Origin: Candidatus Thorarchaeota archaeon
Lineage (GTDB): Archaea; Asgardarchaeota; Thorarchaeia; Thorarchaeales; Thorarchaeaceae
Length of the DNA: 60,506 nt
Direction of reading: 5' to 3'
NCBI GenBank assembly: GCA_016839605.1
Contig: JAEOTX010000150.1
Coordinates: 1-60,506, forward strand
The position numbers were made by a program, and so were the translations under genes. Numbering within the stretch: position 1 is the stretch's first letter; every line of letters begins with the position of its first letter. The notes beneath the pieces were generated by a model. The model saw nothing but the letters and a program-made list of their open reading frames with translations, had not been told where the DNA came from and made no database searches. Below are positions 23,455 through 36,814 of the stretch, piece by piece.

Positions 23455-23649
23455 GGCGGTATATCTTATGCCGTTTCATGATAAGGATTTCGACTATTGC
23501 CGAAGTCATTGTAGCTAATGTGTGTTCAAGTGACTATAGTGGACGGTAAGCAAATGCACGAATTCAACTCCTACTCTTTGCCTCCTTCCTGAATGGGCTT
23601 GATTCTTGATAACTCAGAAACCGGAGAAAATAGCAGGACCTTCCAAAAA

Positions 23650-23789
23650 TGGTGGGCCGGAGGAGATTCGAACTCCTGATCCCCTGGAGACCTGCTCGTA
23701 GACCTAAATGGTCAACAAGTCCCAAACCAGGAATCATTTTTGGCAAAGGTCATTACTGACTGTTTGTAGCCAAGCTAGACCACCGACCC
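23650..23789 (-). tRNA. tRNA-Pro (anticodon UGG) with two introns, CCA encoded
   Basis: Reverse complement: exon1 GGGTCGG-TG-GTCT-AGCTTGGCTA (23789-23767). Intron 1 is 30 nt (23766-23737). Exon2 is TGAT-T-CCTGG-TTTGGGA (23736-23720). Intron 2 is 32 nt (23719-23688). Exon3 is CCAGG-GGATC-AGGAG-TTCGAAT-CTCCT-CCGGCCC-A-CCA. The mature length is 78 nt. A TTATAA box at 23818-23823 lies about 30 nt upstream. The isotype call depends on this hand parse. Confidence 0.7.
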
Positions 23790-24026
23790 ATGTATCCGTC
23801 TGTGCCCCCAATTCTGGTTATAAGAATATCTCTAAAATCATGCAAAGATATCCTGATTTGTAGTCGGGCGTTCTGCCCCTCTTTCCCTTTTCTGCCAAAG
23901 CCAAGCGGTAAATTGACTCATAATATTTAAGGAGGTTTAATGTGTTTGGAATACTCCTTTTTGGGAAATAGTGCTTTATAGACTCTTTATTTTCAAAATA
24001 AAGCGATAATAGATTTCTTTCTTAAT

Positions 24027-25880
24027 AAACTTATATCCTTCAGTGATGTGAAAATGATAGGAGTTCAAATCATTTCTGGCAAACAGAACAGGGAGTGAAC
24101 TCTCAAAGAAACAGGTCAGAAACTTATATCCTTCAGGTGAAATGAATGGGTCGCTCTAGTGGTCTGATTGTCAGCGTTAAGATTCCGATACGTTGGGGCA
24201 TGATGACTAAGCGTCAGAGAACCCGACTCAATCAGATAACTGGAAGGGACAGTAGAATCATCAAAGCCTATCTTGGAGTAATTGAACGTAATGAAACGGA
24301 TTTACTAACAAGTGGAAAGCTGAATCGGGTTAATGTAAGTAAATTGGATAAACTCACGTTGACAGCTTCAAGGGGAGTGGCAGAAAGACATTATGTGCTT
24401 CACGATTTCAAGAAGCGATTTACAAATATCTCAGTAAATGAGTTTCAGGAGTGTAGGGATACTGCAGTCGCGATGTGGCAGAGCTATCTAGAAAAGGGCG
24501 GTTCCAAGCCCCTGAAGGCAAGAGGATACACTTCGAGGAAGATACCTCGATTTGTCTTCAAGCAACGATTCGAGTTTATCTACACACCTGATAGAGAAAT
24601 TAAGCATTGGCTTGTAATCCGGGATTCTCTTGATTCGTCCCGCCGGAGCAGCAGAATCCATGATAAACTTGCAATTCCATTATCGCCCTCTTCCTATCAT
24701 CTCAATAAAATGAATGAAGGGATAGTCAAAACTGTCCGTCTTTTTAGGGATTCGACCCGAAAATGGTGGGCAATATTCACGGTTACTCTACGTGTCGAAT
24801 CACTTCATTCCTTAGGAAAACCATCTGCAGTTTTTGCAATCGACCTCGGGATCAAAAAGACTGCTTGCACTGTGCTTCTCACTCGAAGTGGGTACAAGCA
24901 CGTTCGATACTGGAGGCAAGGTAAGAAAATTGGGCACATGAAACGCTACGACAAACGAGTCGCATGCCTTCAGAGAGAGAAGGAAGACCTGCTCAAGATG
25001 AATAAGGATACTCACGGCGTTGCAAAGGAACTTCGTGAGCTCAATTGCAAACGAAATAGAATAAGTATCGAATATGACAGGAAGTTGGTCAAAGACCTTT
25101 GTGACCACATCCTAGAAATCTCTGAGAAATTCGATCTGTATGTTTGCATTGGAAGAGTCAAAGGAATCCGAAACAGGGCGCGCAAGGGAAATCATAGGGG
25201 TCGCGCGTTTAGAGGAATGATTCACAGGTGGTCCTTCGCTAGAGTGAGTGAAATTCTCAAGCATAAGCTGGAAACTCTTGGATATAATTCAAGGAGGTTC
25301 TATTCAGCTCCAGAAGCGTGGACATCTATCATGTGTCATAAGTGTGGACACAAAGGAATGCGACCAAAACAGAACCTTTTCATCTGTCACACCTGCGGAT
25401 ATCGTGCAAATGCCGACCTGAATGGCGCTATCAATATTGGTAGACGTCATATCATGCTCATCCCTTCACTTAGAGATGAGAAGAAAGGACTAGGAATGTG
25501 GCTTCTTCCCAAGGAAAAGGCCACTCTGAAAGCCCGGAGGAAGAAATCTTCTTCTAAAAGGAAGTCCTCACTCTCCCAGAGGGGCCCAGCCTCAGTAGGA
25601 GAGTCCGTGGCTGATTGCTATGACCAGACTTCAGTTGTGGAGTTTGCGAGCAGTAAAGACCTCGCCATGGTAAAAGCTGTGGAAACACCGTCTGCATCCA
25701 GCAGCTCTGGTAATGTTGAATCAATGCAGCGGACAGAAGCCGGGTCCCGAAAGAGGAACCATGTTCCAGTGAAATCGGGCAAAGCTCACGTCATTTTGAA
25801 ATACAATGGTCTTTCGAAAGCTGGTGACAGCAGTCGTGAGAAGGGTGGAACACAGGAGTTTCTTGATGGTTTACTCACCA
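24027..25880 (+). mobile_element. IS200/IS605-family, tnpB-only element (E1); ends approximate
   Basis: Conserved 5' hairpin module and 3' block are shared with the second copy at 29246..31155. No tnpA is present. Boundaries are inferred only from where the two copies stop resembling each other. Confidence 0.6.
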
Positions 25881-25903
25881 ATACAAGAAGTGGGTCTTCA
25901 TAG
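24146..25903 (+). CDS. tnpB: TnpB-like RNA-guided nuclease homolog (OrfB/IS605 family) with long Ser/Lys-rich C-terminal tail
   Basis: 585 aa. RuvC-I FAIDLGIKK, zinc ribbon CHKCGH..CHTCGY and RuvC-III NADLNGAINI are present. At the canonical RuvC-II hhhExL position the sequence reads CIGRVKGI. Confidence 0.9.
   Translation: MGRSSGLIVSVKIPIRWGMMTKRQRTRLNQITGRDSRIIKAYLGVIERNETDLLTSGKLNRVNVSKLDKLTLTASRGVAERHYVLHDFKKRFTNISVNEFQECRDTAVAMWQSYLEKGGSKPLKARGYTSRKIPRFVFKQRFEFIYTPDREIKHWLVIRDSLDSSRRSSRIHDKLAIPLSPSSYHLNKMNEGIVKTVRLFRDSTRKWWAIFTVTLRVESLHSLGKPSAVFAIDLGIKKTACTVLLTRSGYKHVRYWRQGKKIGHMKRYDKRVACLQREKEDLLKMNKDTHGVAKELRELNCKRNRISIEYDRKLVKDLCDHILEISEKFDLYVCIGRVKGIRNRARKGNHRGRAFRGMIHRWSFARVSEILKHKLETLGYNSRRFYSAPEAWTSIMCHKCGHKGMRPKQNLFICHTCGYRANADLNGAINIGRRHIMLIPSLRDEKKGLGMWLLPKEKATLKARRKKSSSKRKSSLSQRGPASVGESVADCYDQTSVVEFASSKDLAMVKAVETPSASSSSGNVESMQRTEAGSRKRNHVPVKSGKAHVILKYNGLSKAGDSSREKGGTQEFLDGLLTNTRSGSS
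25839..25880 (+). ncRNA. conserved 3' block, candidate omega-RNA scaffold end / right-end element of E1
   Basis: AGAAGGGTGGAACACAGGAGTTTCTTG..GGTTTACTCACCA is nearly identical (26/27 and 12/13) to 29246-29291 on the minus strand. There it lies downstream of the tnpB stop. It contains the hairpin GGAAC-ACAGGA-GTTTC. Confidence 0.4.
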
Positions 25904-25923
25904 CCAAGCTAGGCCTCCGACCC
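25901..25923 (-). pseudogene. orphan tRNA exon-1-like fragment (acceptor 5' strand plus D-arm) with its own TATA box
   Basis: Reverse complement GGGTCGG-AG-GCCT-AGCTTGGCTA matches exon 1 of tRNA-Pro at 20 of 23 positions and ends at the same nucleotide. GGTTATAAGAATA recurs upstream (TTATAA at 25955-25960). No matching 3' part was found in the window. Confidence 0.55.
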
Positions 25924-25977
25924 AGGTTAGTAGGAGGAGGGTCCTAACTTACGGTTATAAGAATAGCGGAGTGCGGC

Positions 25978-27684
25978 TCATGAATCACCCTCTCGAAGTT
26001 CAAGTACAATTCCTTGGTACGGTTCAAGATAGATGCTGGTGGCCCGAAGTGGTTTTGAGTCCAAAAGAGTTGAGAACAGCAAGCTTCTCTTCCCTTTTGC
26101 ATCATCAGTTTGAACTGGTTTGTTGGAAAGGTTCAGCCAAACCTGCACTACTTGTCTATTGTGTCTTCGTTCATATGTGAGAAGGGTTTTCTTGTTCATA
26201 GGCTGCTCTAGAACGTGCATAGAGCCAGAGTGTAGAGCAGGGGTGTTCCTACGGAGTCGCAGGAGGTTTCTATAGCAATGTAACAATGAATCCGACTCTG
26301 ATTCCTCAACCTCTACATTGATTGTTTCATATCTTGCTCCTGCTGGCAACCATGGCTTTGAATCTGCGGGACAGAATCCTGCGTTTAATGATGAATTCCA
26401 TTGCATAGGAGTCCTGCAATCATCACGATTAAGCGAAAAGGAGCCATCTCTTACTAGCAGATTGACTAGCAGTTGATGATACCAACGAAACCTCAAAGCT
26501 ACAGGATCCTGTGCAGTCTTGATAGGCAATCTATGATTGAACATACCAATCTCTTCACCATAATAGATGAAGGGGACGCCTCTTGCTGTCAACTGCAGCG
26601 TCGTATTGAGTTTCGCCTTAACCAGATCATTTCCCAATTTGCTGATTCGGCGTATCTGATCGTGGTTGGAGAACACCCAGGTTGGAGTATATGGTTCATT
26701 GAAGTATTCCTCGTATTTATTGATTATATTCCGAAGTGTGCTTGCATTAAGATTGGCGTTAAGTGACTGAAACAGGAATACAAGATGTAGTCCATTAGTC
26801 TGGTTTTTGTCAACTTCTTCACCACAGTATTTCTTGAGGGTATCAAATGATGCAGCAATTTCACCTACTAGGAACCGTTCAGGGTCCGAATACTCATCCA
26901 TCACGCTTCTAAGTTCCTTGACAAAGGCGAAATTGTCAGGATGGTTAATTGTGAAGATTTTATTCTGAAAGAGGCTTTTCTCATCCTCTTCGGAGGGGAA
27001 GAGCTTCCAAGCAAAAGGATTGTTCTGAAGCTGTTCATCTTCGAATATTGTATTGATTATGTCTAGGCGAAATCCATCAACCCCCCTATTCAACCAGAAT
27101 CGGACAGTATCAAACATCTCCTTCTTCACGTCAGGATTCCGATAGTTGAGGTCTGGTTGAAAGGGCAAGAACTGAGCCCAATACCACTGATCTGTCACAT
27201 CATCATAATGCCAACCTGAACCTCCAACCATAGATTTCCAGTTATTAGGAGGTTTCCTACCACCGGACTTTTTCCCATCTCGCCAAATGTACCAATCACG
27301 TTTTGGATTCTCTCGACTTAAGCGCGATTCTAGGAACCATGGATGCTGGTCACTTGTATGATTCAGCACCATATCAAAGACAACATACATGGCCCGATTA
27401 TGAATCTCCTGAATTAGTCTGTCACAATCAGCCATCGTACCATACTCTGGTGCTATATCTCGGTAGTTGCTCACATCATACCCATGGTCTGTTTGAGGGC
27501 TTGAAAAAAAGGGGGAAAACCAAATGGTTTCAACCCCCAAGTCCTGTAGATAGTCCAGCTTTGTGATTATTCCAGGAATATCACCAATCCCATTACCTGT
27601 ACTGTCCTTGAAGCTTCGGGGATAGATCTGATACACAGTGGTTCGCTTCCACCATGGTAGGTTTCTAGTCTTTTCATCTGGCAT
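25978..27684 (-). CDS. GH13 alpha-glucosidase / oligo-1,6-glucosidase family
   Basis: 568 aa. WWKRTTVYQIYPRSFKDS.GNGIGD, DLGVETIWFSPFF, DGFRLDII, GEI and FSNHDQ are GH13 conserved regions I-IV. Confidence 0.9.
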   Translation of the reverse strand: MPDEKTRNLPWWKRTTVYQIYPRSFKDSTGNGIGDIPGIITKLDYLQDLGVETIWFSPFFSSPQTDHGYDVSNYRDIAPEYGTMADCDRLIQEIHNRAMYVVFDMVLNHTSDQHPWFLESRLSRENPKRDWYIWRDGKKSGGRKPPNNWKSMVGGSGWHYDDVTDQWYWAQFLPFQPDLNYRNPDVKKEMFDTVRFWLNRGVDGFRLDIINTIFEDEQLQNNPFAWKLFPSEEDEKSLFQNKIFTINHPDNFAFVKELRSVMDEYSDPERFLVGEIAASFDTLKKYCGEEVDKNQTNGLHLVFLFQSLNANLNASTLRNIINKYEEYFNEPYTPTWVFSNHDQIRRISKLGNDLVKAKLNTTLQLTARGVPFIYYGEEIGMFNHRLPIKTAQDPVALRFRWYHQLLVNLLVRDGSFSLNRDDCRTPMQWNSSLNAGFCPADSKPWLPAGARYETINVEVEESESDSLLHCYRNLLRLRRNTPALHSGSMHVLEQPMNKKTLLTYERRHNRQVVQVWLNLSNKPVQTDDAKGKRSLLFSTLLDSKPLRATSIYLEPYQGIVLELREGDS

Positions 27685-27840
27685 CCAGAGTTCCTCTCAG
27701 GACTCTGATTCTAACCCCCTCTTTTTTCTTCTCACATCATTGTAGAATCACAAATGAGCGTGAGTCTTCTTTGCCATTCACAGGAAAATTTCCATTGGCA
27801 GTAAGGAATAAGGTCTTAACTGAAAAGTAAGTAGTCGACT

Positions 27841-28095
27841 GTGAGTAAGATGAGTTTACTTGGTCCGGATGATTTCGACTTGGATAGAAAAGGGCGAAAG
27901 AAGAAGCTGGCAAAGGACCTGGCTCCTTCAGTTGCGAAGGAAGTTGAAAGATGGCTGGACAGGGAAGACGATCCTGAGGCTTTTAGGAGAGTATCAGAAC
28001 TGGTAGGCCCAGAAGAGGCCGCCCGTTTGTTTGCTAGACGCCGAAAGCATGGTAGAAAATCGAAACCTAAAGACCCTCTACTCGAAGACCAATGA
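27841..28095 (+). CDS. hypothetical basic protein
   Basis: 84-aa ORF with a GTG start and Lys/Arg-rich composition. No motif, so weak support. Confidence 0.3.
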   Translation: MSKMSLLGPDDFDLDRKGRKKKLAKDLAPSVAKEVERWLDREDDPEAFRRVSELVGPEEAARLFARRRKHGRKSKPKDPLLEDQ

Positions 28096-28471
28096 AGGGA
28101 CTACATTGACAGCAAATACCTACGAAAACGATGATAGAACAGAATTGAGCAATATGAGAACCTCGTTAGCATTCATACGCACGATTGATGCGGAGAAAAG
28201 AACACATCTGGCAGAATTGCGAACAGGAATTGGCATGTTGACAATACCGTTGTCCCTTTTGACCATCCTGATAGCGACCTCAAATTATTATTCAGTCAGT
28301 GATGTGCTGACTCTCATAGCTGGCCTTGCTATTGGTATAGTCATACTCCTTCTGATTGGCGCTCATCTAGTGTTTTCATCTCTCAGAAAGATTCGTGGAG
28401 ATGACCGCCTTCGAACAGCATGTGATGACCTTTCGAATTTAGTGGCAGAGTTCAACAACCACGATGAGTAG
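28031..28471 (+). CDS. DUF202 (YidH-like) membrane protein
   Basis: NMRTSLAFIRT...EKRTHLAELRTGIG resembles the DUF202 double (E)RT.LA..RT motif and is followed by two to three TM helices. The start is uncertain (28031, 28049 or 28154). Confidence 0.6.
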   Translation: MLDAESMVENRNLKTLYSKTNEGTTLTANTYENDDRTELSNMRTSLAFIRTIDAEKRTHLAELRTGIGMLTIPLSLLTILIATSNYYSVSDVLTLIAGLAIGIVILLLIGAHLVFSSLRKIRGDDRLRTACDDLSNLVAEFNNHDE

Positions 28472-28557
28472 AAAACGTGACTTTTCTTCTTGCGCTGTAG
28501 ATAAGTCATATACTTTCAGAATTCAGCTGTCTGTTCAAGACGGTTGAGGAATCAGAT

Positions 28558-28860
28558 ATGACAACGAAACTCAGAGTCACTGTGATAAGGAAATTCAGCC
28601 CAGAGGAGATTTTTGGCCACGAGATCATGCGAGATGGTAAGCCACTACAGCCATGCGGCCATAAGGAAGGAGAGGAGTTCATCGTGGACCACCATTTAGA
28701 CAGGCCAAAGGATTTCTGTGGCCAAGCTTGGCAAGACCTCTATACTACTCTGATGATTTACCACTTTGGAGGGGATTATAACTATCCAGAACCCGGTGTC
28801 ACATACCAGCCATGTGGCGACGGCATGAGGACAGTCATATTCAAAATAGAAAAGATATGA
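28558..28860 (+). CDS. TIGR04076-like small Cys-containing protein
   Basis: 100 aa. LRVTVIRK...CGHKEGEEF.V......P.DFCGQAW.DL....MIYHFGG......CGDGMRTVIFKIEK matches my recollection of that family. Confidence 0.55.
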   Translation: MTTKLRVTVIRKFSPEEIFGHEIMRDGKPLQPCGHKEGEEFIVDHHLDRPKDFCGQAWQDLYTTLMIYHFGGDYNYPEPGVTYQPCGDGMRTVIFKIEKI

Positions 28861-28874
28861 ACTGGGGAATAAAG

Positions 28875-28912
28875 TGGAGCCCCAGGAGGGATTTGAACCC
28901 TCGGCCTCCTCC
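28875..28912 (-). pseudogene. tRNA 3'-half fragment (Thr-like: anticodon-stem 3' strand, variable loop, T-arm, acceptor, CCA)
   Basis: Reverse complement GGAGG-AGGCC-GAGGG-TTCAAAT-CCCTC-CTGGGGC-T-CCA parallels tRNA-Thr GGAGG-AGGCC-GCGGG..CCCGC-CAGGGGC-T-CCA. No convincing acceptor 5' strand or D-arm lies upstream. Confidence 0.55.
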
Positions 28913-29057
28913 TTACTTTCAGAATTATTCATTTTGCTTCCGACACTATACCAAAGAAATGGAGGCTCAAGTGTAGTTGTTAGAATCGTGAGTACAAAAT
29001 GCTGGATAGTCTTCGAAACCTTTATCTCAATATCCTAATCGGACACCAATTACGGAA

Positions 29058-29165
29058 GCCCCTGTAGCTCAGACCGGTTAGATCGCCTCCTTGGTAAGGA
29101 GGAGGCCGCGGGATCTTGTTTCACTTCGAAGCGAGACGCGAATTCGAATCCCGCCAGGGGCTCCA
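29058..29165 (+). tRNA. tRNA-Thr (anticodon GGU) with a 30-nt intron in the T-arm (53/54), CCA encoded
   Basis: GCCCCTG-TA-GCTC-AGACCGGTTA-GATC-G-CCTCC-TTGGTAA-GGAGG-AGGCC-GCGGG-[29113-29142]-TTCGAAT-CCCGC-CAGGGGC-T-CCA. The mature length is 78 nt. Confidence 0.75.
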
Positions 29166-29245
29166 TTTTATTTTGATAATCTCCAGTAGGTTTAAGCCAA
29201 TGAGATTGCCAGTCTGAGCTACTGCTGACCTATAGCTTGCTTCTA

Positions 29246-31155
29246 TGGTGAGTGAACCACACTGCAAGAAACTTCTGTGTTCCACCCTTCTCCTGCCTGT
29301 GTCGCCACCTCCCGAAGTCCAATGGACTTCAGAATTAGCAGGAGCATTGTCTGTCATCATTGGGATGGGATCCCTCCTCCAGACCTGGCCTTCTTCTCCT
29401 GTCTTGATGCTGAGCCATCACTCCCAGCGACAGAGAGAGTTTCCACAGTTCTTACCACGGCAGGGTCATCATCACCTTTCCCAGCTTCATCACTGAAGCT
29501 GAGAAGACTCGTTTGAGCATGGTGAACGGCCGCGGACTCTCCGGGGAATGATGACGATCCCTTCTTGGAGAGTAAGGACTTCCCTCTGGAAGACTTCCTT
29601 TGGGCTTTCGGTCGCGCACGTCGAACCCTTTCTAAGGTTCTAGTCCACAGGCCTAGTCCTCTCACAGAGTGCAATGACTTTGTGAGCGTAAGCATGCGTG
29701 CTGCAATATTGATACTACCGTTTCGGTCTGCATTGGTCTTCTGTCCACAAGATGGGCAGTGGAAGTAGTTCTGCTTGGGTCTCTTGCCCTTGCTTCCACA
29801 CTTCCAACAGATAATGGATGTCCATGCCTCAGGAACAGCTCTGAACCGGGCATCCTTTCCATCGACTTTCCAGTCGAGCTGAGCCAGTCCGTGTTTCAGA
29901 CTCTCAGTTATTCGAGCAAAGGCCCATGAGTGAATCATTCCTCTGAACCTTCGCCCCCTGTAGTTTCCTCGCTTAGCACGCATACGTATGTTCTTCAGGC
30001 GACCAATGGCAACATAGAGTGTGTACTTCTTGGACAAATCAGAGATATAATCAAGAAGCTGACGTACAAGGACTCTGTCATATTCTTTTGCAACCTTCTC
30101 GCGCTTGGAATGTAATCGACCGAGTTTCTTTGCTACTCCTTCATATGGAATCTGACTATTCTTTCTGGTGTGCATCTCTCTCTGCAAATCTGCAACAAGT
30201 CTATCGTATTTCTTGATGATGCTAGTCTTATCTCTCTGGACAAAATAGCACGTTTCCCTTGTCTTTTCAGGGGTGAGAAGAGTTGAACAAGCAGCTTTCT
30301 CGATGCCGAGATCAATCCCGAGTATAGCAAATGGGAGGTCTTTTCTAATAGCTTTACCAAATGCTATGCGGATTGCGAATGTCAGCCACCACTTTCCTCT
30401 TCTATCAGTGAAGATTTGTAATGCCTTTACTTCACCGCGCTTAATCTGGCTAAGATGAAAAGGTGACATTCTGAGAGGAATTCTCAAGCGATCATGATAC
30501 CTTCGACCAGCTGTGGCGGAGTCCAGTGAGTCTCTAATGTCAAGCCACCATCGAGAAGTGGAGGTCTTCTTCTCAATGAGTTTGAACCTTCGAGAGAACA
30601 CCCATCTCGGAATTCTTCGACTGGCACTTATGGAAGTTGGACGGGAAGCATTTCTTCCACTCTTTCTTCTAAGTTTGAGATAGCTCTCATACATTGAAAT
30701 GGCAGTCTGTCTGCATTCGTTCATTTCATTCTGGGAGATTCTTTGGAATCTGACTTTGAAGTCATGTGGAACGCTCATCCTCTGTCTGTATCCTGACTTG
30801 ACCTTGATTGCAGTCATGGTCAACTTGTCAAGCTCGCTGTCGTCAATTCTATCTCTGTTGCGACCTGTGAGCAACTTGTCTTCATGTTGTTCAATTATTC
30901 CAAGAAATGCACGAATTACTCTAGTGTCTCGCCCAACGGTCTGTCTAAGCCTCTGCCTAGTCCTTTCAGTCATGTCCTCCCAGTTAATGGGGACCTTCAC
31001 CGAAACTGTCACACCCTTGGACCGAGCCATAACCAATTCGCCCTTACTATATAAAATTCTGACCCGTTTCCACGTCAGTTGAGTTCACTCCCTTTCTAGT
31101 TCAGAAGGGAGGTTTTGAACTCGTACAATAGTATGAATCATTACTATATAAAATT
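29246..31155 (-). mobile_element. IS200/IS605-family, tnpB-only element (E2); ends approximate
   Basis: Same architecture as E1 in inverted orientation. The 3' conserved block is 29246-29291, the 5' hairpin module is 31081-31122, and 15-nt direct repeats flank the module at 31044-31058 and 31141-31155. Confidence 0.6.
29357..31030 (-). CDS. tnpB: TnpB-like RNA-guided nuclease homolog, second diverged copy
   Basis: The track ORF begins at TTG 31036. ATG 31030 (MARSKGVTVSVKVPINW) aligns with the E1 start MGRSSGLIVSVKIPIRW. GIDLGIEK, CWKCGS..CPSCGQ and NADRNGSINI are present. The RuvC-II position reads AIGRLKNI. Confidence 0.9.
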   Translation of the reverse strand: MARSKGVTVSVKVPINWEDMTERTRQRLRQTVGRDTRVIRAFLGIIEQHEDKLLTGRNRDRIDDSELDKLTMTAIKVKSGYRQRMSVPHDFKVRFQRISQNEMNECRQTAISMYESYLKLRRKSGRNASRPTSISASRRIPRWVFSRRFKLIEKKTSTSRWWLDIRDSLDSATAGRRYHDRLRIPLRMSPFHLSQIKRGEVKALQIFTDRRGKWWLTFAIRIAFGKAIRKDLPFAILGIDLGIEKAACSTLLTPEKTRETCYFVQRDKTSIIKKYDRLVADLQREMHTRKNSQIPYEGVAKKLGRLHSKREKVAKEYDRVLVRQLLDYISDLSKKYTLYVAIGRLKNIRMRAKRGNYRGRRFRGMIHSWAFARITESLKHGLAQLDWKVDGKDARFRAVPEAWTSIICWKCGSKGKRPKQNYFHCPSCGQKTNADRNGSINIAARMLTLTKSLHSVRGLGLWTRTLERVRRARPKAQRKSSRGKSLLSKKGSSSFPGESAAVHHAQTSLLSFSDEAGKGDDDPAVVRTVETLSVAGSDGSASRQEKKARSGGGIPSQ

Positions 31156-31280
31156 ATGAAGACTGCACTATGCATAATTCATGAATATCCTGTTTAAATG
31201 AATAATTTCACCATTTTTCAGGAAATGATATATGTCGAAAAACCCGAATAATTTATTATGTAATTTGCTGATATTGCTCT

Positions 31281-34200
31281 GTGGCGAATACAAGGTATCC
31301 TCGAAGTCCTTCAAGAGTTCTCACAACGGCTTTCAGAATGGCCATGGCTATCACTCTAGCACTAGCCCGCGACAGAGCTTCAGGTATATCTAGACCACTC
31401 TATTTCGGACAGGGAAAGAGAATCGTCGGGATGGCGAAGATTTGGAAGAAAGCAAAGAAAGCCTATCTTAAAACAGTGCAAAATCGCCACCCTGATGCTT
31501 CAGTTCTGCTCCGGGCCGAACATAGTATTCGAAGGAGCTTCATTCGAATCCTACTGAAAACAGCAGTGAGATATGGAAATACAGAAACAAAACGGGTGAA
31601 ACGAGAAGAAGGGAATAAAGGGTATCTGAATATTCTGTGGGACTATATTGGAAGCAGGATTCGAGAAACTGTTGCAGCAAGGTACATCTTCTCTGATCCT
31701 GTCCCTATAGAAATGAGTGACGGGTCTTCAGGAATTGGCTATCCTGGTTCAACAAGATTTCCTGTATATCCAGTTAGACATAACCATCTACCAGGACTTG
31801 ACTTTGGGGATATGATCAGGAGTCCGTTGATGGAGCTTGCTCGACAATGCATGAAATGCGGTGTTTCAATAAGAGAGTCAAAGAAGTACATTGATGCCCT
31901 GTTGTACAGGCTCGTTCCCTTCATGGACTACGTCTATACACAGAGAAGATTCGGAAGGCCAAACTACGTCCGAGATGGACTCAAAGAGCTCAGAATAGTC
32001 GTGGACCAGATCAAGAGGGAACATGGTACAAGAAACGGGCTCCGTCAATCAATCACGTCTGAAGTCCAAGAATCTCTAGATACCGAAATAGACATAGAAG
32101 ATACTCCGGTCCAAGACGAAATCGCGGATTCGATTCGACTTGAAATGAGCCAGAATAAGAAGTCGGATGATGAAACGCATTTTCTGAGAGAGGCTATAAT
32201 ATCAGCACGGAGTGAGGGAACTGTCATTGATGGTCTTCTCCAAGTCGCCGAGGAATTGCTTGATAATGGCACCTTGACCATTGAAGACTCTGAGATGCTC
32301 CTGAACCAGGCAAAAGAACAGAGCAGAAGGATAGGCAGCCGACTCCACAGGTTTGTTTCAAAGAACTTCCAGAGTCCGTTCAATCTGAATGGGATCATCT
32401 ATCATGGAACAGAAATGGCCTATGATAACTCAGGACTCATACTCTTCTCAGAGGTTTCTGTCGATGGAGGAAGAGGTAGGATTGACTTCGTGTTGGCTCG
32501 AGCGAAACAGTTACCTAAGGTCGATGGAGCGCCCTCGCCGGTCTTCTTTGAGCCCTTCTTAATCGCTGACTTGAAGTCCAAGAATGCCTTCGACTTCGAC
32601 ATCTATGGAATGAAATCACGGTCCATAGATGTGAACAATGTTGTCAGTGAGTTTGTCTTGGAACGCAGACCGCTGACCAATGAGGAGTGGGAGAGCGTTC
32701 TATCGAACACTCCTGATGACTATGAAGAAAAGCAACTGGATGTTTATGAAACTGCCATCATCGCTGACTATCAGAACGTGATGCAGAAAGATGTTGACCG
32801 TCAGAAGAAGCTAGCAAAAGCCATCATCGTTGTCGATTCTTTTCAGGACTGGAAAGACATCAGTGAGTCGATTCTCCCCCTCATCATGAGAGCATATGAT
32901 GGATGTGTTGATGGAACTCTCTCTGAGGGTGATTTTCTAAAGCATTCCAACAGGGATTCAAACTTGAGGATTGCTATGAAGATGCTCTCTGTCACTAGAC
33001 CAGTCACAAATACTGTGCCTACAGACATTCCCGTTCCAATGAGTTCTTTCAGTGAGCGGGTTGTTGATGAGAAGGAATTCATCCTCTATCTCACCGTGCC
33101 CGGAAACGCCTCCTCTGCTCAGTCAGCCGCAACGATAGCAGAACGATGGCATAGTCTGGAGTATGTGTATGAACACGCGAAACGACGGCATCGAGATGTG
33201 TACTGGTTTGACCTTGTGGGTGAGTACAATGATCCCATTCTGAGAAAGAAGCAATTCAGACTAAGATATCAAAGTGAACCGATACAGCGGTTCTTCAAAC
33301 GTCGAGTTCGGATGAGAGATATCTCTGACAGTGTCAGGGACTTTGTCTTTGAGGGAGATTCTATTGACACTCTTAGAAACTGCATACACGACATCATCCG
33401 GGGCAGTCGAGATCCCATAGTAGTGGTTTCGGGGTGGGACAATCTTCGCCGAAGCACTCCATCACCGTTCGACAGATATCTTGATGAGATTGTAGCAACC
33501 TTACTGCAATCTCTTCCAAAGAGATGCACAGTCTTGTGGTGTGCGCGCCCTGTACCCATCGCTCAGAACAGCACGACCTATTCCACAAGATGTGTTGCTC
33601 CATTCTACCAAGGGGCACTATTGTCAAACTTTGTTGACACCATCATATGGAACGTAGTCATGCCACCAGATCGAACAGGTGCAAGAATGCCTACGAATGA
33701 CCATGAAAGGGCAATCTTCATCGAACGTGCAGGAGAAGCTCTTGAGCAATCAGTGATTAAAATTGAACCATTGAAAGGATGGGGAGCAAGATTCCGTCCA
33801 GGTGGACGAGAACTGAAACCAATTTTTCACAAAGGAGGAGGCCTATCCATAGCTCAAAGCAGTTGGTATGAAGAGAAACAGCTTGAACGTGCGAGGGGGC
33901 TCTTACCTCATCTTTCAGAAGAACATGAGTATAATCCGGGTCCACGGGCAAACTTCAAGCTTGATGTGAAACGAGTGACCTCTGGATATGGTTCATCAGA
34001 GGAACGACTTCCACTGCTCTCTTTTGCTCCCACGCAGGTCTATGCTCAGAGAAAAGGGGAAGAGGACACTCGAAAGATAGACGTCGATAGAAGATTCCGC
34101 ACTCTATTATCGATTGCTGATATTGACCGAAAAAGAGAGTACAGGGAGATTCAGCTTAAACAGAATCCTCCAATGCGGACAACCCGTCCTCCCTTAGAAC

Positions 34201-36650
34201 GCTTCCTCATTGAAACAGACATAGGCATTTCAAGAATAGTACACACGGAAGTCCAGCGTTTAAGAGAATGCATTTTGTTTCTCAGACAAAGAACAGAGGA
34301 CTATTTGGTACCGTTACTTAATGAGATATCAGGAGTGCTTGAGCGAACAGGTGAGAAAATCGGACCAAGTAATGTCATGACATTTTTGAACACGCTGCGA
34401 CTAGTTCGTCAGATACTGGAAACCAACACTCTGAGTAGAGAAATCTGGTGGCGATTATTCCCATATCGTTCCACAGTGCCAAAGTATCTAGCAAAGCAAC
34501 AGATAGAACACCTGACCTCTATCCAGAAGCGGCATCCAGACATTCTCTTGATAACAGGAAATCACCTCTTTCTCCTACTGCTGGCTGCACATGGGCCATT
34601 CTCGGACGTTTCGTTCACAGATACAATTTGGTCATTATGGGATTATGTTCAGCCATGGCATCTGATCGGTCTTGGATTCAGAGCAGTCTATCCCAAGAGG
34701 CACAGAAGAGGGAGATCCGTCCTTGACAGACACAAGCTCCTGCAGCAAGTGCGGCAGCGCATCACCAAGCACAACAGAATGATAGAGAAACAGACTTCTC
34801 CGACCAATGTGCGGTATGGACAAATAATCTCTCTGCCATCTTCGGGAGCAGCAGAGTCTACCTATCTCTGGCTGCTCTTTCAGAGGCGTTCAGGTACCTA
34901 TGACATGAATGCTGCACTCCTGAACCCTAGAGGAATTGATCCCTCTCTCTCTCCTCAGGACACTCTCAGGGAGATGGTGTCAGAAAAGACCTATTGGAGT
35001 GAAAGCGACCTCAACTTGTTGAGCTGGTACGCGAAGCTGGAAGGCAATGAGAGCAGAATCTCTGTGATGGTGGCTAACCAGCAGGGCTTACAGATTCTTT
35101 GGATAGGTGATAGAGAGCAACGAGTTTGGACTCCTGCTGGAAGGATCCACTACACTACTCGAAAATTTGAAGACGTGACCCTAGTTCGAACTATCACCCT
35201 ATCTGCAGACCCACACCTTCAATCTGTGGACTATGAAGATGTGCGACGACCCGTTCATCGAATAGATGACACAGTAGACACAGCCCTTGTGATTCTCAAA
35301 CACGGACTGGCTGGGTGTACTCCCGTTGTCTGTGAGGTATCTCTTGATGTAGACAACAAGATGTATAGAATCAACTTTGCAGAAAGAAGGACTGGCAAGT
35401 TATTTGGAGAACTTCTAATCAGGAGGACGGCCGATCTTGTAGAGGTTCTCAGACGTCCTGACGCTGAATGTGAGCCAGTCTTGGTAGATGGGGAGCGATT
35501 AACCTGGAACAGGTTCAAGGACATATCTTATGCAGAGGATGTTGCTCTTCTCAGACCGTGGGTGGAACGAATGAATCCCTTCACAGGGCTTGCTCTGAAG
35601 TGTCCGCCCAATGCAGAAGCTCTTCTAGACGCAAGAAAGGAGTTCAACTTTGTCTTGGAACTTCATCATGATCCGTGGACCTGCCCATTGAGGCACACCA
35701 CATTGGACGCGATACAAAAGTCACACAAGCGAGCGCAGGCCATGGGTCACCACTACATGTTTAGATACGCTAGTCATTGGGCAGAACCAGAACGGATCAG
35801 CAATGAACCTGGATTACACCACGGGTCGTGCTGGGGAGTTTACATCAATACACCACAGACTCTCACTCCAGAATTATTGACTCTCGTGGATATTCGCCTC
35901 ACCGATGCTCAAGTTAGATCACTACTGAGTCCTCAGGAACTGGTCTATTGGTCACAGGAGCGAAATGAATGGGTGACACACTCGTTCGAAATAGCATTGG
36001 GGAAGAAGTGTAGTGAAGAGGCAAGAGAGTCCTGGCATATCAGAGCATTGCTGAAGGAACTAATTGGACAGAATCTTGAGCAGAAAACTCCTGGAGTGTA
36101 TCTATGGAATCCTGACCGCTGGAAACCATTCTTCACAATCAAACCTGAGTGTGTTGTGATAGGGCTGACTGAGATTGATTCTGGAGTAGAAAAGACACAT
36201 GTAATTCCTGAAGGACAAGTTGCATTGAGAGAACCATTTGAAGTACAGGATATCCTTGAGCGCGGGATGAAGGAGTTATTGGAGAGAAATGGGATTATTC
36301 CTGACAGGAAGATGACAGCAGCAATACGAGAGGAGATAGCAGCCTCTTTAGAAGTCTTTGGAGTAAGAGAGGGCAAGGCAGCAGTGGAGTTTGATCGAGC
36401 TGAGATAAGGCAGGACTCTGTGGGGGGTAGAGTCATCTATGTTATTCTGACATCAGAAGATGAAACCCATAGAATTCCCGTCACACAACATCTTCATGAT
36501 ATAAAGATGGCTGGACGCATCAGCAGGAACGATTTTGTGAGTGAGGTCTCATCGATACTTGAGGAGTTCAATCTCAGTAAAGAAGACATGGAAAGTGCAC
36601 TGAGCGAATGTGTCAGGTTGATGAGGCAGGAACGGATTATCAAGAAATAG
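31281..36650 (+). CDS. giant hypothetical protein (1789 aa) with a RecB-like PD-(D/E)xK nuclease motif set
   Basis: A single uninterrupted 5.4-kb ORF. Motifs: GRGRID402FVL, IAD430LK432SK, Q485LDVY489. The rest has no motif I recognise and no Walker A. The start is uncertain: GTG 31281, or ATG codons at residues 20 or 51. Confidence 0.8.
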   Translation: MANTRYPRSPSRVLTTAFRMAMAITLALARDRASGISRPLYFGQGKRIVGMAKIWKKAKKAYLKTVQNRHPDASVLLRAEHSIRRSFIRILLKTAVRYGNTETKRVKREEGNKGYLNILWDYIGSRIRETVAARYIFSDPVPIEMSDGSSGIGYPGSTRFPVYPVRHNHLPGLDFGDMIRSPLMELARQCMKCGVSIRESKKYIDALLYRLVPFMDYVYTQRRFGRPNYVRDGLKELRIVVDQIKREHGTRNGLRQSITSEVQESLDTEIDIEDTPVQDEIADSIRLEMSQNKKSDDETHFLREAIISARSEGTVIDGLLQVAEELLDNGTLTIEDSEMLLNQAKEQSRRIGSRLHRFVSKNFQSPFNLNGIIYHGTEMAYDNSGLILFSEVSVDGGRGRIDFVLARAKQLPKVDGAPSPVFFEPFLIADLKSKNAFDFDIYGMKSRSIDVNNVVSEFVLERRPLTNEEWESVLSNTPDDYEEKQLDVYETAIIADYQNVMQKDVDRQKKLAKAIIVVDSFQDWKDISESILPLIMRAYDGCVDGTLSEGDFLKHSNRDSNLRIAMKMLSVTRPVTNTVPTDIPVPMSSFSERVVDEKEFILYLTVPGNASSAQSAATIAERWHSLEYVYEHAKRRHRDVYWFDLVGEYNDPILRKKQFRLRYQSEPIQRFFKRRVRMRDISDSVRDFVFEGDSIDTLRNCIHDIIRGSRDPIVVVSGWDNLRRSTPSPFDRYLDEIVATLLQSLPKRCTVLWCARPVPIAQNSTTYSTRCVAPFYQGALLSNFVDTIIWNVVMPPDRTGARMPTNDHERAIFIERAGEALEQSVIKIEPLKGWGARFRPGGRELKPIFHKGGGLSIAQSSWYEEKQLERARGLLPHLSEEHEYNPGPRANFKLDVKRVTSGYGSSEERLPLLSFAPTQVYAQRKGEEDTRKIDVDRRFRTLLSIADIDRKREYREIQLKQNPPMRTTRPPLERFLIETDIGISRIVHTEVQRLRECILFLRQRTEDYLVPLLNEISGVLERTGEKIGPSNVMTFLNTLRLVRQILETNTLSREIWWRLFPYRSTVPKYLAKQQIEHLTSIQKRHPDILLITGNHLFLLLLAAHGPFSDVSFTDTIWSLWDYVQPWHLIGLGFRAVYPKRHRRGRSVLDRHKLLQQVRQRITKHNRMIEKQTSPTNVRYGQIISLPSSGAAESTYLWLLFQRRSGTYDMNAALLNPRGIDPSLSPQDTLREMVSEKTYWSESDLNLLSWYAKLEGNESRISVMVANQQGLQILWIGDREQRVWTPAGRIHYTTRKFEDVTLVRTITLSADPHLQSVDYEDVRRPVHRIDDTVDTALVILKHGLAGCTPVVCEVSLDVDNKMYRINFAERRTGKLFGELLIRRTADLVEVLRRPDAECEPVLVDGERLTWNRFKDISYAEDVALLRPWVERMNPFTGLALKCPPNAEALLDARKEFNFVLELHHDPWTCPLRHTTLDAIQKSHKRAQAMGHHYMFRYASHWAEPERISNEPGLHHGSCWGVYINTPQTLTPELLTLVDIRLTDAQVRSLLSPQELVYWSQERNEWVTHSFEIALGKKCSEEARESWHIRALLKELIGQNLEQKTPGVYLWNPDRWKPFFTIKPECVVIGLTEIDSGVEKTHVIPEGQVALREPFEVQDILERGMKELLERNGIIPDRKMTAAIREEIAASLEVFGVREGKAAVEFDRAEIRQDSVGGRVIYVILTSEDETHRIPVTQHLHDIKMAGRISRNDFVSEVSSILEEFNLSKEDMESALSECVRLMRQERIIKK

Positions 36651-36814
36651 ACGGTCATCATAGTCCATAAAACAGGGCTATAATATACAGCTAGCAGGGA
36701 GCTACTGAGGCATCCTTAGACACATCTCTCATGGATTGATGTCATTTCGCAGTCCGCACTGAGATTGGACATAAAGCTTTCGACGTGGAGCACGCGAGGC
36801 AGCTTGAGTTCGGT

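Follow-up and report, generated by a model that had tools for sequence, protein, structure and literature searches.

We analyzed a stretch of 60,506 nucleotides from a Candidatus Thorarchaeota archaeon (contig JAEOTX010000150.1, here C80), which belongs to a 3.08-Mb assembly (GCA_016839605.1, here G000) that is 80% complete. The whole stretch is referred to as the window. It carries two copies of tnpB, here named E1 and E2, and over the 3' end of each copy it probably encodes a structured RNA of about 410–435 nt of the omega-RNA type, also called reRNA. A nucleotide block shared by both copies lies inside this RNA, and the DNA flanking the 3' end of the RNA would serve as the guide.

The conserved block

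The block is located at 25839–25880 on the plus strand in E1 and at 29246–29291 on the minus strand in E2, as the initial annotation of this DNA had reported, with 26 of 27 identical positions in a 27-mer and 12 of 13 in a 13-mer. Its placement in E1 is based on alignment A3 (see below) and pair counts, that in E2 on the sequence match. A 23-nt core had exactly two matches in the window and none in 100 dinucleotide-preserving shuffles. The open reading frame (ORF) of E1 (24146–25903) was confirmed to read across the block, while the ORF of E2 ends at 29357 and the block follows 66–111 nt past the stop codon.

The flanking tnpB sequence had been described as much more diverged than the block. 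The block is, however, not isolated: conserved nucleotide blocks extend over about 350 nt further upstream. The conservation had further been ascribed to the RNA or DNA level, with the block as the 3' scaffold of an omega-RNA or as the end of the element. Strong covariation, G.U pairs on the sense strand only and a scaffold kept with and without an overlying ORF support the RNA level and an omega-RNA-type scaffold over the 3' end of tnpB; the block is, however, not the 3' end of either scaffold or element. Conservation at the RNA level is well supported, and the block is placed inside a long omega-RNA-type scaffold.

Fold and extent of the scaffold

The initial annotation had proposed to look for covariation across more copies. 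Alignment A3 comprised 30 homologous 3' regions, namely the six copies of this genome and 24 from 16 related genomes, with E1 represented by 25595–25878 of the window. Covariation was strong: RNAalifold yielded nine helices made up of 49 pairs, and 38 of these pairs showed compensatory double changes. Paired cells amounted to 94.1%, compared to 79% with shuffled partners and 36–53% with slid ones, and double-change cells to 282 versus 101. None of 500 shuffles reached the observed values on any measure. On the tnpB-sense strand 144 G.U or U.G cells were opposed by 21 A.C or C.A cells, which identifies this strand as the one that folds.

Alignment A4 (35 sequences) extended A3 by 190 nt upstream and revealed a 5' domain in which five helices contribute another 23 pairs. 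Of these, 17 are compensatory, and 93.4% of the cells are paired compared to 82% when shuffled. Both domains together contained 72 pairs in 14 helices, and 55 pairs showed compensatory changes. The first helix begins at AGGACU, at 25486 in E1 and at 29660 in E2, so that the scaffold is about 410–435 nt long and overlaps the last 100–140 codons of tnpB. Folded as a single sequence, the E1 scaffold had a z-score of -2.57.

The predicted scaffold of E1 thus spans 25486–25898 on the plus strand and is composed of the 5' domain (25486–25604), a central and 3' domain (25605–25855), a terminal hairpin and an end motif. It is delimited by covariation in both alignments, at its 5' side by copies without tnpB and at its 3' side by an empty site. 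The predicted scaffold of E2 (29225–29660, minus strand) is based on covariation and an empty-site boundary, and the ORF ends inside it. In E1 the block provides the 3' strands of helix 7 (25835–25840), helix 5 (25844–25846) and helix 3 (25851–25855). In helix 3 its CACAG pairs with CTGTG at 25677–25681 and closes a domain of about 170 nt. Additionally, the block holds the 5' strand and the loop of the terminal hairpin. The fold is kept where the ORF reads through (E1), where it stops inside (E2) and in 16 solo copies.

Solo scaffolds without tnpB

These 16 scaffolds lacked tnpB. Two were found in this genome by a profile search (C70:1548–1836, minus strand, and C39:8349–8639, plus strand) and 14 in relatives (loci L067–L080); none of them matched the first 450 amino acids of TnpB. 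Ten were of full length, and 11 of the 16 ended in the hairpin followed by a clear CAGGTC-type motif. The aligned full-length copies mostly lacked the GTTCACTCA loop, yet the hairpin and CAGGTCAG were retained. They consistently started at the first helix, and a TATA-like box preceded this start by about 28 nt. This common start fixes the 5' limit and, as far as can be judged from sequence, argues for the scaffold as an RNA gene that would be transcribed independently.

A tRNA gene lies downstream of three solo copies of relatives (L074, L076 and L071), and after each of these scaffolds comes a 13–17-nt copy of the D-arm region of that gene. Between the short inverted repeats ACTTAAGC and GCTTAAGT, some 30 nt appear to be inverted in the flank of the C70 solo copy (about 1440–1517) relative to that of its counterpart in G014 (L069).

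Terminal hairpin and end motif

Similarity between the copies had been thought to end right after ACTCACCA. This does not hold, since the next 16–20 nt are complementary to the GTTTCTTG part of the block and end in a CAGGTC-type motif that is common to nearly all of about 40 copies. In every copy 7–30 variable nucleotides follow ACTCAC before the conserved (A)CAGGTC(A/G/T) motif, and this variable stretch is in each case complementary to the stretch between CACAGAAGT and GTTCAC. The resulting terminal stem-loop has the loop GUUCACUC(A); the published GTTCACTCA motif, which was present with variants in all 30 TnpB-linked copies, corresponds to this loop. Duplexes of a copy's own arms had a mean of -8.7 kcal/mol compared to -6.3 for arms combined across copies (26 copies, permutation p < 2e-4).

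In E1 the stem-loop spans 25858–25891 (plus strand), with an outer stem (25860–25865/25884–25889), an inner stem (25867–25870/25877–25880) and the loop UUUACUC. It is followed by the end motif GGGTC plus 2 nt (25892–25898, plus strand), which forms the right end of the inserted DNA. The corresponding motif of E2, AGGTC plus AG (29225–29231, minus strand), forms the right end of the element. Both ends were placed by empty sites.

The stretches ATACAAGAAGTGGGTC (E1, 25881–25896) and TAGAAGCAAGCTATAG (E2, 29230–29245), which the initial annotation had put forward as guides, consist of the 3' strand of this terminal hairpin and the end motif. A search of the genome with them, suggested at the time, gave a single extra match not due to chance: the E1 stretch is found again, with one mismatch, in the homologous hairpin strand of the copy on contig C158. 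For the E2 stretch no meaningful second match was present in the genome. A further match with one mismatch in C255 was dismissed as unrelated coding sequence. The two stretches are thus not the guides, which are likely to be the tRNA-derived flanks that start 2 nt past the CAGGTC motif.

Element boundaries

Three independent empty sites in sister genomes, for E1, for E2 and for a third copy on contig C220, define where the elements end. The end is located 1–2 nt past GGTC/GTTC at C220 and E2 and 1–4 nt past it at E1.

At the empty site of E1 an uninterrupted tRNA-Pro gene (..CCAGGAATCA|TAGCCAAGC.., then the promoter) was present in G005, G011, G015, G009 and G016 and also in G010, G008, G006 and G012. 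The insert at this tRNA-Pro junction measures 2161–2164 bp (23737 to 25897–25900). Its right junction reads ..GTGGGTC TTCA|TAGCC, and homology to the tRNA-Pro genes of the relatives resumes at 25898; due to the shared TCA the boundary may be placed anywhere in 25897–25900.

For C220 the empty site reads ..GCTGCA|TAGGCAAAAGA|GTAATC in the four closest of seven relatives; in the remaining three the only difference lies immediately ahead of the shared TAGGCAAAAG. At the filled site (locus L066) the 10–11-mer TAGGCAAAAGA is found on both sides of an element of 12,050 bp (C220:5847–17896), which ends with ..CAACAGTTCC(T). The filled site of E2 reads ..TATAGGTCAG|CAGTAGCTC and the empty site in five relatives with an intact tRNA-Thr gene ..GGATGCCT|CAGTAGCTC. 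The CAGTAGCTC abutting the element corresponds to tRNA-Thr from position 5 onward, and the similarity of paralogues to E2 stops at 29222–29228. An empty site for the copy on contig C57 was sought in the relatives and none was found. Since the boundary lies past the CAGGTC motif, the flanking tRNA-derived sequence becomes the guide candidate.

tRNA genes at the flanks

The candidate guide of E1 (25899–25923, plus strand) consists of CA and the antisense of tRNA-Pro positions 1–23 and represents the native exon 1. It is contiguous with the native promoter and the downstream synteny as in the relatives, and 22 of 24 positions are identical to the working copy at 23767–23790. In G013, a copy of the E1 element is followed by the identical 23 nt past GGTC, while the proteins are only 67% identical.

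The working tRNA-Pro gene (23651–23789, minus strand) carries a 30-nt intron in the D-loop (23737–23766), located exactly at the junction where uninterrupted genes read ..AAT|CATAGCC. An intron at this position is also present in genome G003, where no TnpB accompanies it, and G013 shows the same filled architecture as the window. The promoter of the working copy resembles those of distant relatives (G010, G012 and G013), whereas that of the orphan exon is still of the type seen in close relatives. The mismatch suggests that the segment containing E1 was gained by recombination or homing.

The candidate guide of E2 (29205–29224, minus strand) comprises tRNA-Thr positions 5–20 followed by unrelated sequence, and its first 9 nt are repeated at 36699–36707. 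Remnants of the former tRNA-Thr gene are the 3' half (28875–28916), positions 5–20 (29209–29224) and the upstream region from 36699 onward. A 292-bp insert there contains an intact replacement tRNA-Thr in inverted orientation with a T-loop intron (29058–29162). ARAGORN reported one tRNA in the window and missed the intron-bearing ones.

Among the revised guide candidates only that of E1 had a second copy in the genome (the working tRNA-Pro, with a second locus on C101). The flanks of the copies on C220, C7, C158, C70 and C39 were unique in the genome, as expected of guides matching only an empty site. No published description of a TnpB aimed at tRNA genes was found.

The right flank of the C57 copy (ACCCGCGTC..; locus L010:1178–1278) resembles the T-stem of an adjacent convergent tRNA, which has a T-loop intron at the corresponding place. 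In five loci of relatives (L019, L017, L016, L036 and L042) the scaffold is followed by two or three CAGGTC(G/A)G motifs (CAGGTCGG) 40–53 nt apart. In L019, L017 and L042 12–14-mers identical to the 3' region of the 16S rRNA (antisense of AGTCGTAACAAGGT, and GGATCACCTCCT) come after these motifs, and the 3' end of a 16S gene lies some 300 nt away from L042. Contigs of four DNA sequencing runs covered the region too patchily to show a joint across the E1 or the E2 element.

TnpB proteins and family copies

The tnpB of E1 (24146–25903, plus strand) is an ORF of 585 amino acids whose last 140 or so codons overlie the scaffold. That of E2 (29357–31036, minus strand; 559 amino acids) was assigned by ORF, protein comparison and Pfam. 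Both proteins are 44% identical, and their alignment ends at about residue 541 of E1. The Cas12f1-like TNB domain of Pfam was found in both (E = 1.9e-13 for E1 and 3.2e-12 for E2), and matches in the PDB to TnpB/Cas12f over E1 residues 345–435 cover the zinc ribbon and the RuvC-III NAD motif. RuvC-I is represented by its motif DLGI. With the Asp of RuvC-I and RuvC-III and the zinc ribbon, the proteins are relatives of TnpB/Cas12f.

Besides E1 and E2, the assembly carries complete copies on three contigs (C220, C7 and C57) and a partial copy on C158. Homologues were found in 18 of the 41 related genomes searched, nearly all of the same taxonomic family. The copies share 44–68% identity at the amino-acid level, and some homologues require one or two stop codons to be read through. 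Several copies occupy the same locus in different genomes, for example E1 and L015 or C39 and L073.

Composition of the elements

The whole E2 element, as defined by the empty site and the direct repeats, measures 7474 bp (29225–36698) and is inserted in the former tRNA-Thr gene. It consists of tnpB with the predicted omega-RNA and a divergently oriented gene for 1789 amino acids, and is bordered by the 9-bp direct repeat GAGCTACTG (29216–29224 and 36699–36707). The C220 element contains ABC-transporter ATPase and permease genes and a gene for 1763 amino acids, with tnpB and the RNA at its right end. A divergent giant neighbour gene, as in these two elements, is also present at C57.

The divergent genes for about 1780 amino acids of the E2 and C220 elements matched no Pfam family, and neither a Y1 nor a serine TnpA was present in the elements. 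The Cas1 family of Pfam (Cas_Cas1) had no match in the 80% complete genome nor in the 1789-aa neighbour, which leaves room for a very divergent Cas1-like domain. A comparison by eye of the true left and right ends gave no convincing terminal inverted repeats. Based on the lack of a Y1 or serine TnpA, the direct repeats and the cargo, the E2 and C220 elements are not members of IS200/IS605 or IS607.

The upstream module

A further module lies in the intergenic DNA that separates tnpB from the giant gene. In E1 (24027–24136, plus strand) it comprises T1 (24027–24043), a hairpin H (24060–24102), the motif AAACAGGTCAG (24109–24119) and T2 (24120–24136). In E2 (31044–31155, minus strand) T1 is located at 31141–31155, H at about 31081–31123, the motif at 31059–31069 and T2 at 31044–31058. 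T1 and T2 are TATA-like boxes, and the module is not an element end. An IS605-style model with this module as the left end was dropped, because the empty sites put the left ends kilobases away.

Complementarity of 8–14 nt links the 3' arm of H (GAGTGAAC..) with the block's GTTCACTC loop, and both covary: GAATGAAC occurs with GTTCATTC, GAGTGAAT with ATTCACTC and GAGTGAGGC with GCCTCACTC. The mean energy of a copy's own arm and loop was -15.8 kcal/mol, compared to -12.9 for cross pairs (p < 1e-4). Furthermore, in 17 of 25 elements an exact repeat of 10–17 nt, specific to the copy, occurs in both T1 and T2. In T1 it is always preceded by ..TT(A/C/T)AT; in T2 it is preceded by GGTC(A/G)G in 15 of these elements and by a degenerate version of this motif in the remaining two. 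We regard it as a lead rather than a finding that T1 and T2 may relate to each other like a target flanked by a transposon-associated motif (TAM) and a guide flanked by a scaffold; the repeat could then be a short self-targeting guide.

Proposed function and alternative explanations

The following model would account for these data. The omega-RNA gene would be transcribed in the sense of tnpB, over the last 100–140 codons and up to the right end of the element. The RNA would fold into the 5' domain and then into the multi-helix central domain, closed by the CUGUG/CACAG pairing. The terminal stem-loop with the loop GUUCACUC(A) would come next, and the conserved CAGGUC plus 2 nt would end scaffold and element alike. 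The guide would be transcribed from the next 16–20 nt or so of the flank, that is tRNA-Pro antisense in E1 and tRNA-Thr in E2. By analogy with characterised systems we infer that the RNA is processed and bound by TnpB, and that the loaded TnpB may recognise and cut the uninterrupted, intron-less tRNA gene behind a short TAM (possibly ..MAT). Such cutting would favour retention or homing of the element.

Several observations weigh against this reading. A permissive Rfam scan of 23500–31500 matched only the tRNA at 29058–29162, and among the sequencing runs on record as RNA none contains the locus. Characterised TnpB omega-RNAs are about half as long as this scaffold. Folded alone, the terminal hairpins were not more stable than shuffled ones (z = 0.04 and -1.04), so that their support is comparative. 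The TAM was derived from three empty sites, of which two end in AAT or CAT while the tRNA-Thr site ends in CCT and does not fit. The canonical Glu of RuvC-II is absent and replaced by Gly (CIGRVKGI in E1 and AIGRLKNI in E2). Finally, elements without TnpA, with 9–11-bp direct repeats and with 7–12 kb of cargo are unlike IS200/IS605 and IS607, and the retention logic of those families may thus not apply here.

The replaced Glu leads to the possibility that the RNA-guided complex has been domesticated or serves regulation, in which case it would bind its targets (tRNA genes, rRNA genes or its own promoter) but leave them uncut. This would also suit the age of the copies, shared loci such as those of E1/L015 and C39/L073 and the T1/T2 repeat, which resembles a short guide with its target. 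However, Glu-to-Gly clades have been described as catalytically rearranged and probably active, with a predicted substitute Glu (PMC10691335), and the RuvC-II sites of E1 and E2 match these clades. Presence and absence at one site among close relatives as well as the direct repeats at two elements point to mobility, and we consider a domesticated or regulatory role improbable. A guide inside the scaffold, with GTTCACTCA acting like a CRISPR repeat, is in turn suggested by the hypervariable region between a conserved T and GTTCACTCA reported by Altae-Tran et al. 2023 (PMC10691335), and such a reading has tentatively been put forward for these Asgard loci. Indeed, the stretch between ..CACAGAAGT and GTTCACTCA varies between sub-families in sequence and in length (9–21 nt). 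Within a sub-family it is nevertheless nearly constant at unrelated loci (TTCTTGCNGTTGTG in E2, C158, L029, L036, L026, L028 and L027), and every copy shows complementarity between it and the segment past ACTCAC. Moreover, most solo copies lack GTTCACTCA but retain the hairpin and CAGGTCAG, and the element runs 20–30 nt past GTTCACTCA, which makes an internal guide very unlikely.

That the conserved region is instead a transposon end at the DNA level, with binding sites or hairpins for a transposase and no RNA product, is highly unlikely as well. It does stop exactly at the element boundary, and GTTCACTC has its inverted partner GAGTGAAC in the upstream module, similar to terminal inverted repeats. 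But a region exceeding 400 nt, in which 14 helices covary and G.U outnumbers A.C by 7:1 on one strand, is unlike a protein-binding end, the true left ends are located 5–10 kb away beyond the giant gene, and the solo copies lie behind TATA-like boxes of their own. The right-end hairpin recognised by TnpA, which the initial annotation had named as the alternative, is at odds with the lack of any TnpA and with the 9–11-bp direct repeats. Protein-coding constraint on the C-terminal tail of TnpB has an extremely small probability, even though the ORF is open over much of the region in most copies. The block of E2 lies beyond the stop codon, several homologues would need one or two stops to be read through, the paired columns change together and thereby alter amino acids (CCGTGG/CCATGG versus CCGCGG/CCGTGG), and the protein alignment of E1 and E2 ends at about residue 541 of E1.

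An omega-RNA-type scaffold with tRNA-derived flanks as guides could also be one half of a two-RNA, RNA-guided homing system on conserved structural-RNA genes, a scheme which we hold to be rather doubtful. Here, the cis guide past CAGGTC plus 2 nt would target intron-less tRNA genes and, in relatives, 16S genes. Working copies would escape by a mini-intron exactly between TAM and protospacer, as might be the case for the tRNA-Pro gene. A second small RNA, from the hairpin of the upstream module, would dock with 8–14 bp onto the GUUCACUC loop of the scaffold, like a CRISPR RNA (crRNA) onto a trans-activating crRNA (tracrRNA), and its 10–17-nt guide (T2) would be directed against the element's own TTMAT-flanked promoter (T1), resulting in autoregulation. 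Solo scaffolds would supply extra guides in trans.

Comparison with known systems

The predicted RNA is similar to the omega-RNA or reRNA of IS200/IS605 and IS607 (ISDra2, OMEGA) in being a structured sense RNA over the 3' end of tnpB. As in those families, the right end of the element also marks the end of the scaffold, the flank would supply the guide, and target and guide would be distinguished by TAM versus scaffold end. Unlike in those families, the scaffold measures about 410–435 nt, Y1 or serine TnpA are missing and the elements of 7.5–12 kb carry cargo and produce direct repeats of 9–11 bp. The Gly in RuvC-II, the many tnpB-less solo scaffolds and flanks that are often pieces of tRNA or 16S genes are further differences. 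Here, TnpB is carried at one end of large elements that generate direct repeats.

For aCas1-associated TnpB loci of Asgard archaea Altae-Tran et al. 2023 described, downstream of tnpB, the GTTCACTCA motif with an adjoining hypervariable stretch, whose nature was left open and which was suspected to be a guide (PMC10691335). The elements fit these groups, as they share with Cas1H-Asgard-1 and -2 the Asgard host, GTTCACTCA downstream of tnpB, flanking repeats and a large partner gene (PMC10691335). As for the Cas1 homologue that adjoins those loci, Pfam gave no match here, in an 80% complete genome and a 1789-aa partner. In contrast to the published suggestion on the guide (PMC10691335), the stretch before GTTCACTCA is a hairpin arm, and the boundary lies past CAGGTC plus 2 nt. 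The 5' start, fold, terminal hairpin, end motif and likely guide position given here provide an anatomy for the Asgard TnpB guide RNA that the literature had left open. This anatomy, with the corrected guide position, is needed to reconstitute nucleases with the rearranged active site.

Type V CRISPR systems use pairs of tracrRNA and crRNA, and regulatory guides that target the system itself are known as tracr-L or as mini-arrays of the CreR type. Like such pairs, the predicted upstream hairpin RNA has 8–14 nt complementary to the terminal loop of the scaffold. Like self-targeting guides, the upstream module ends with CAGGTCRG and 10–17 nt which are identical to a TTMAT-bearing site and may be read as a guide. 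A repeat-spacer array was not present in the window, and past each scaffold a single end motif was found.

Introns or splits in archaeal tRNA genes were reportedly viewed by Randau and Soll in 2008 as a protection against integrative elements. Integrative elements that target tRNA genes, with tRNA introns as protection, were also treated by Sugahara et al. 2012 (PMC3293823). Similar to these elements, tRNA genes are interrupted here and a working copy with a non-canonical intron lies beside the broken piece, which makes the idea of protection by introns directly testable. Recognition would, in contrast, depend on an RNA guide and not on the att site of an integrase. In the tRNA-Pro gene the intron is positioned exactly at the junction of the would-be TAM and the target.

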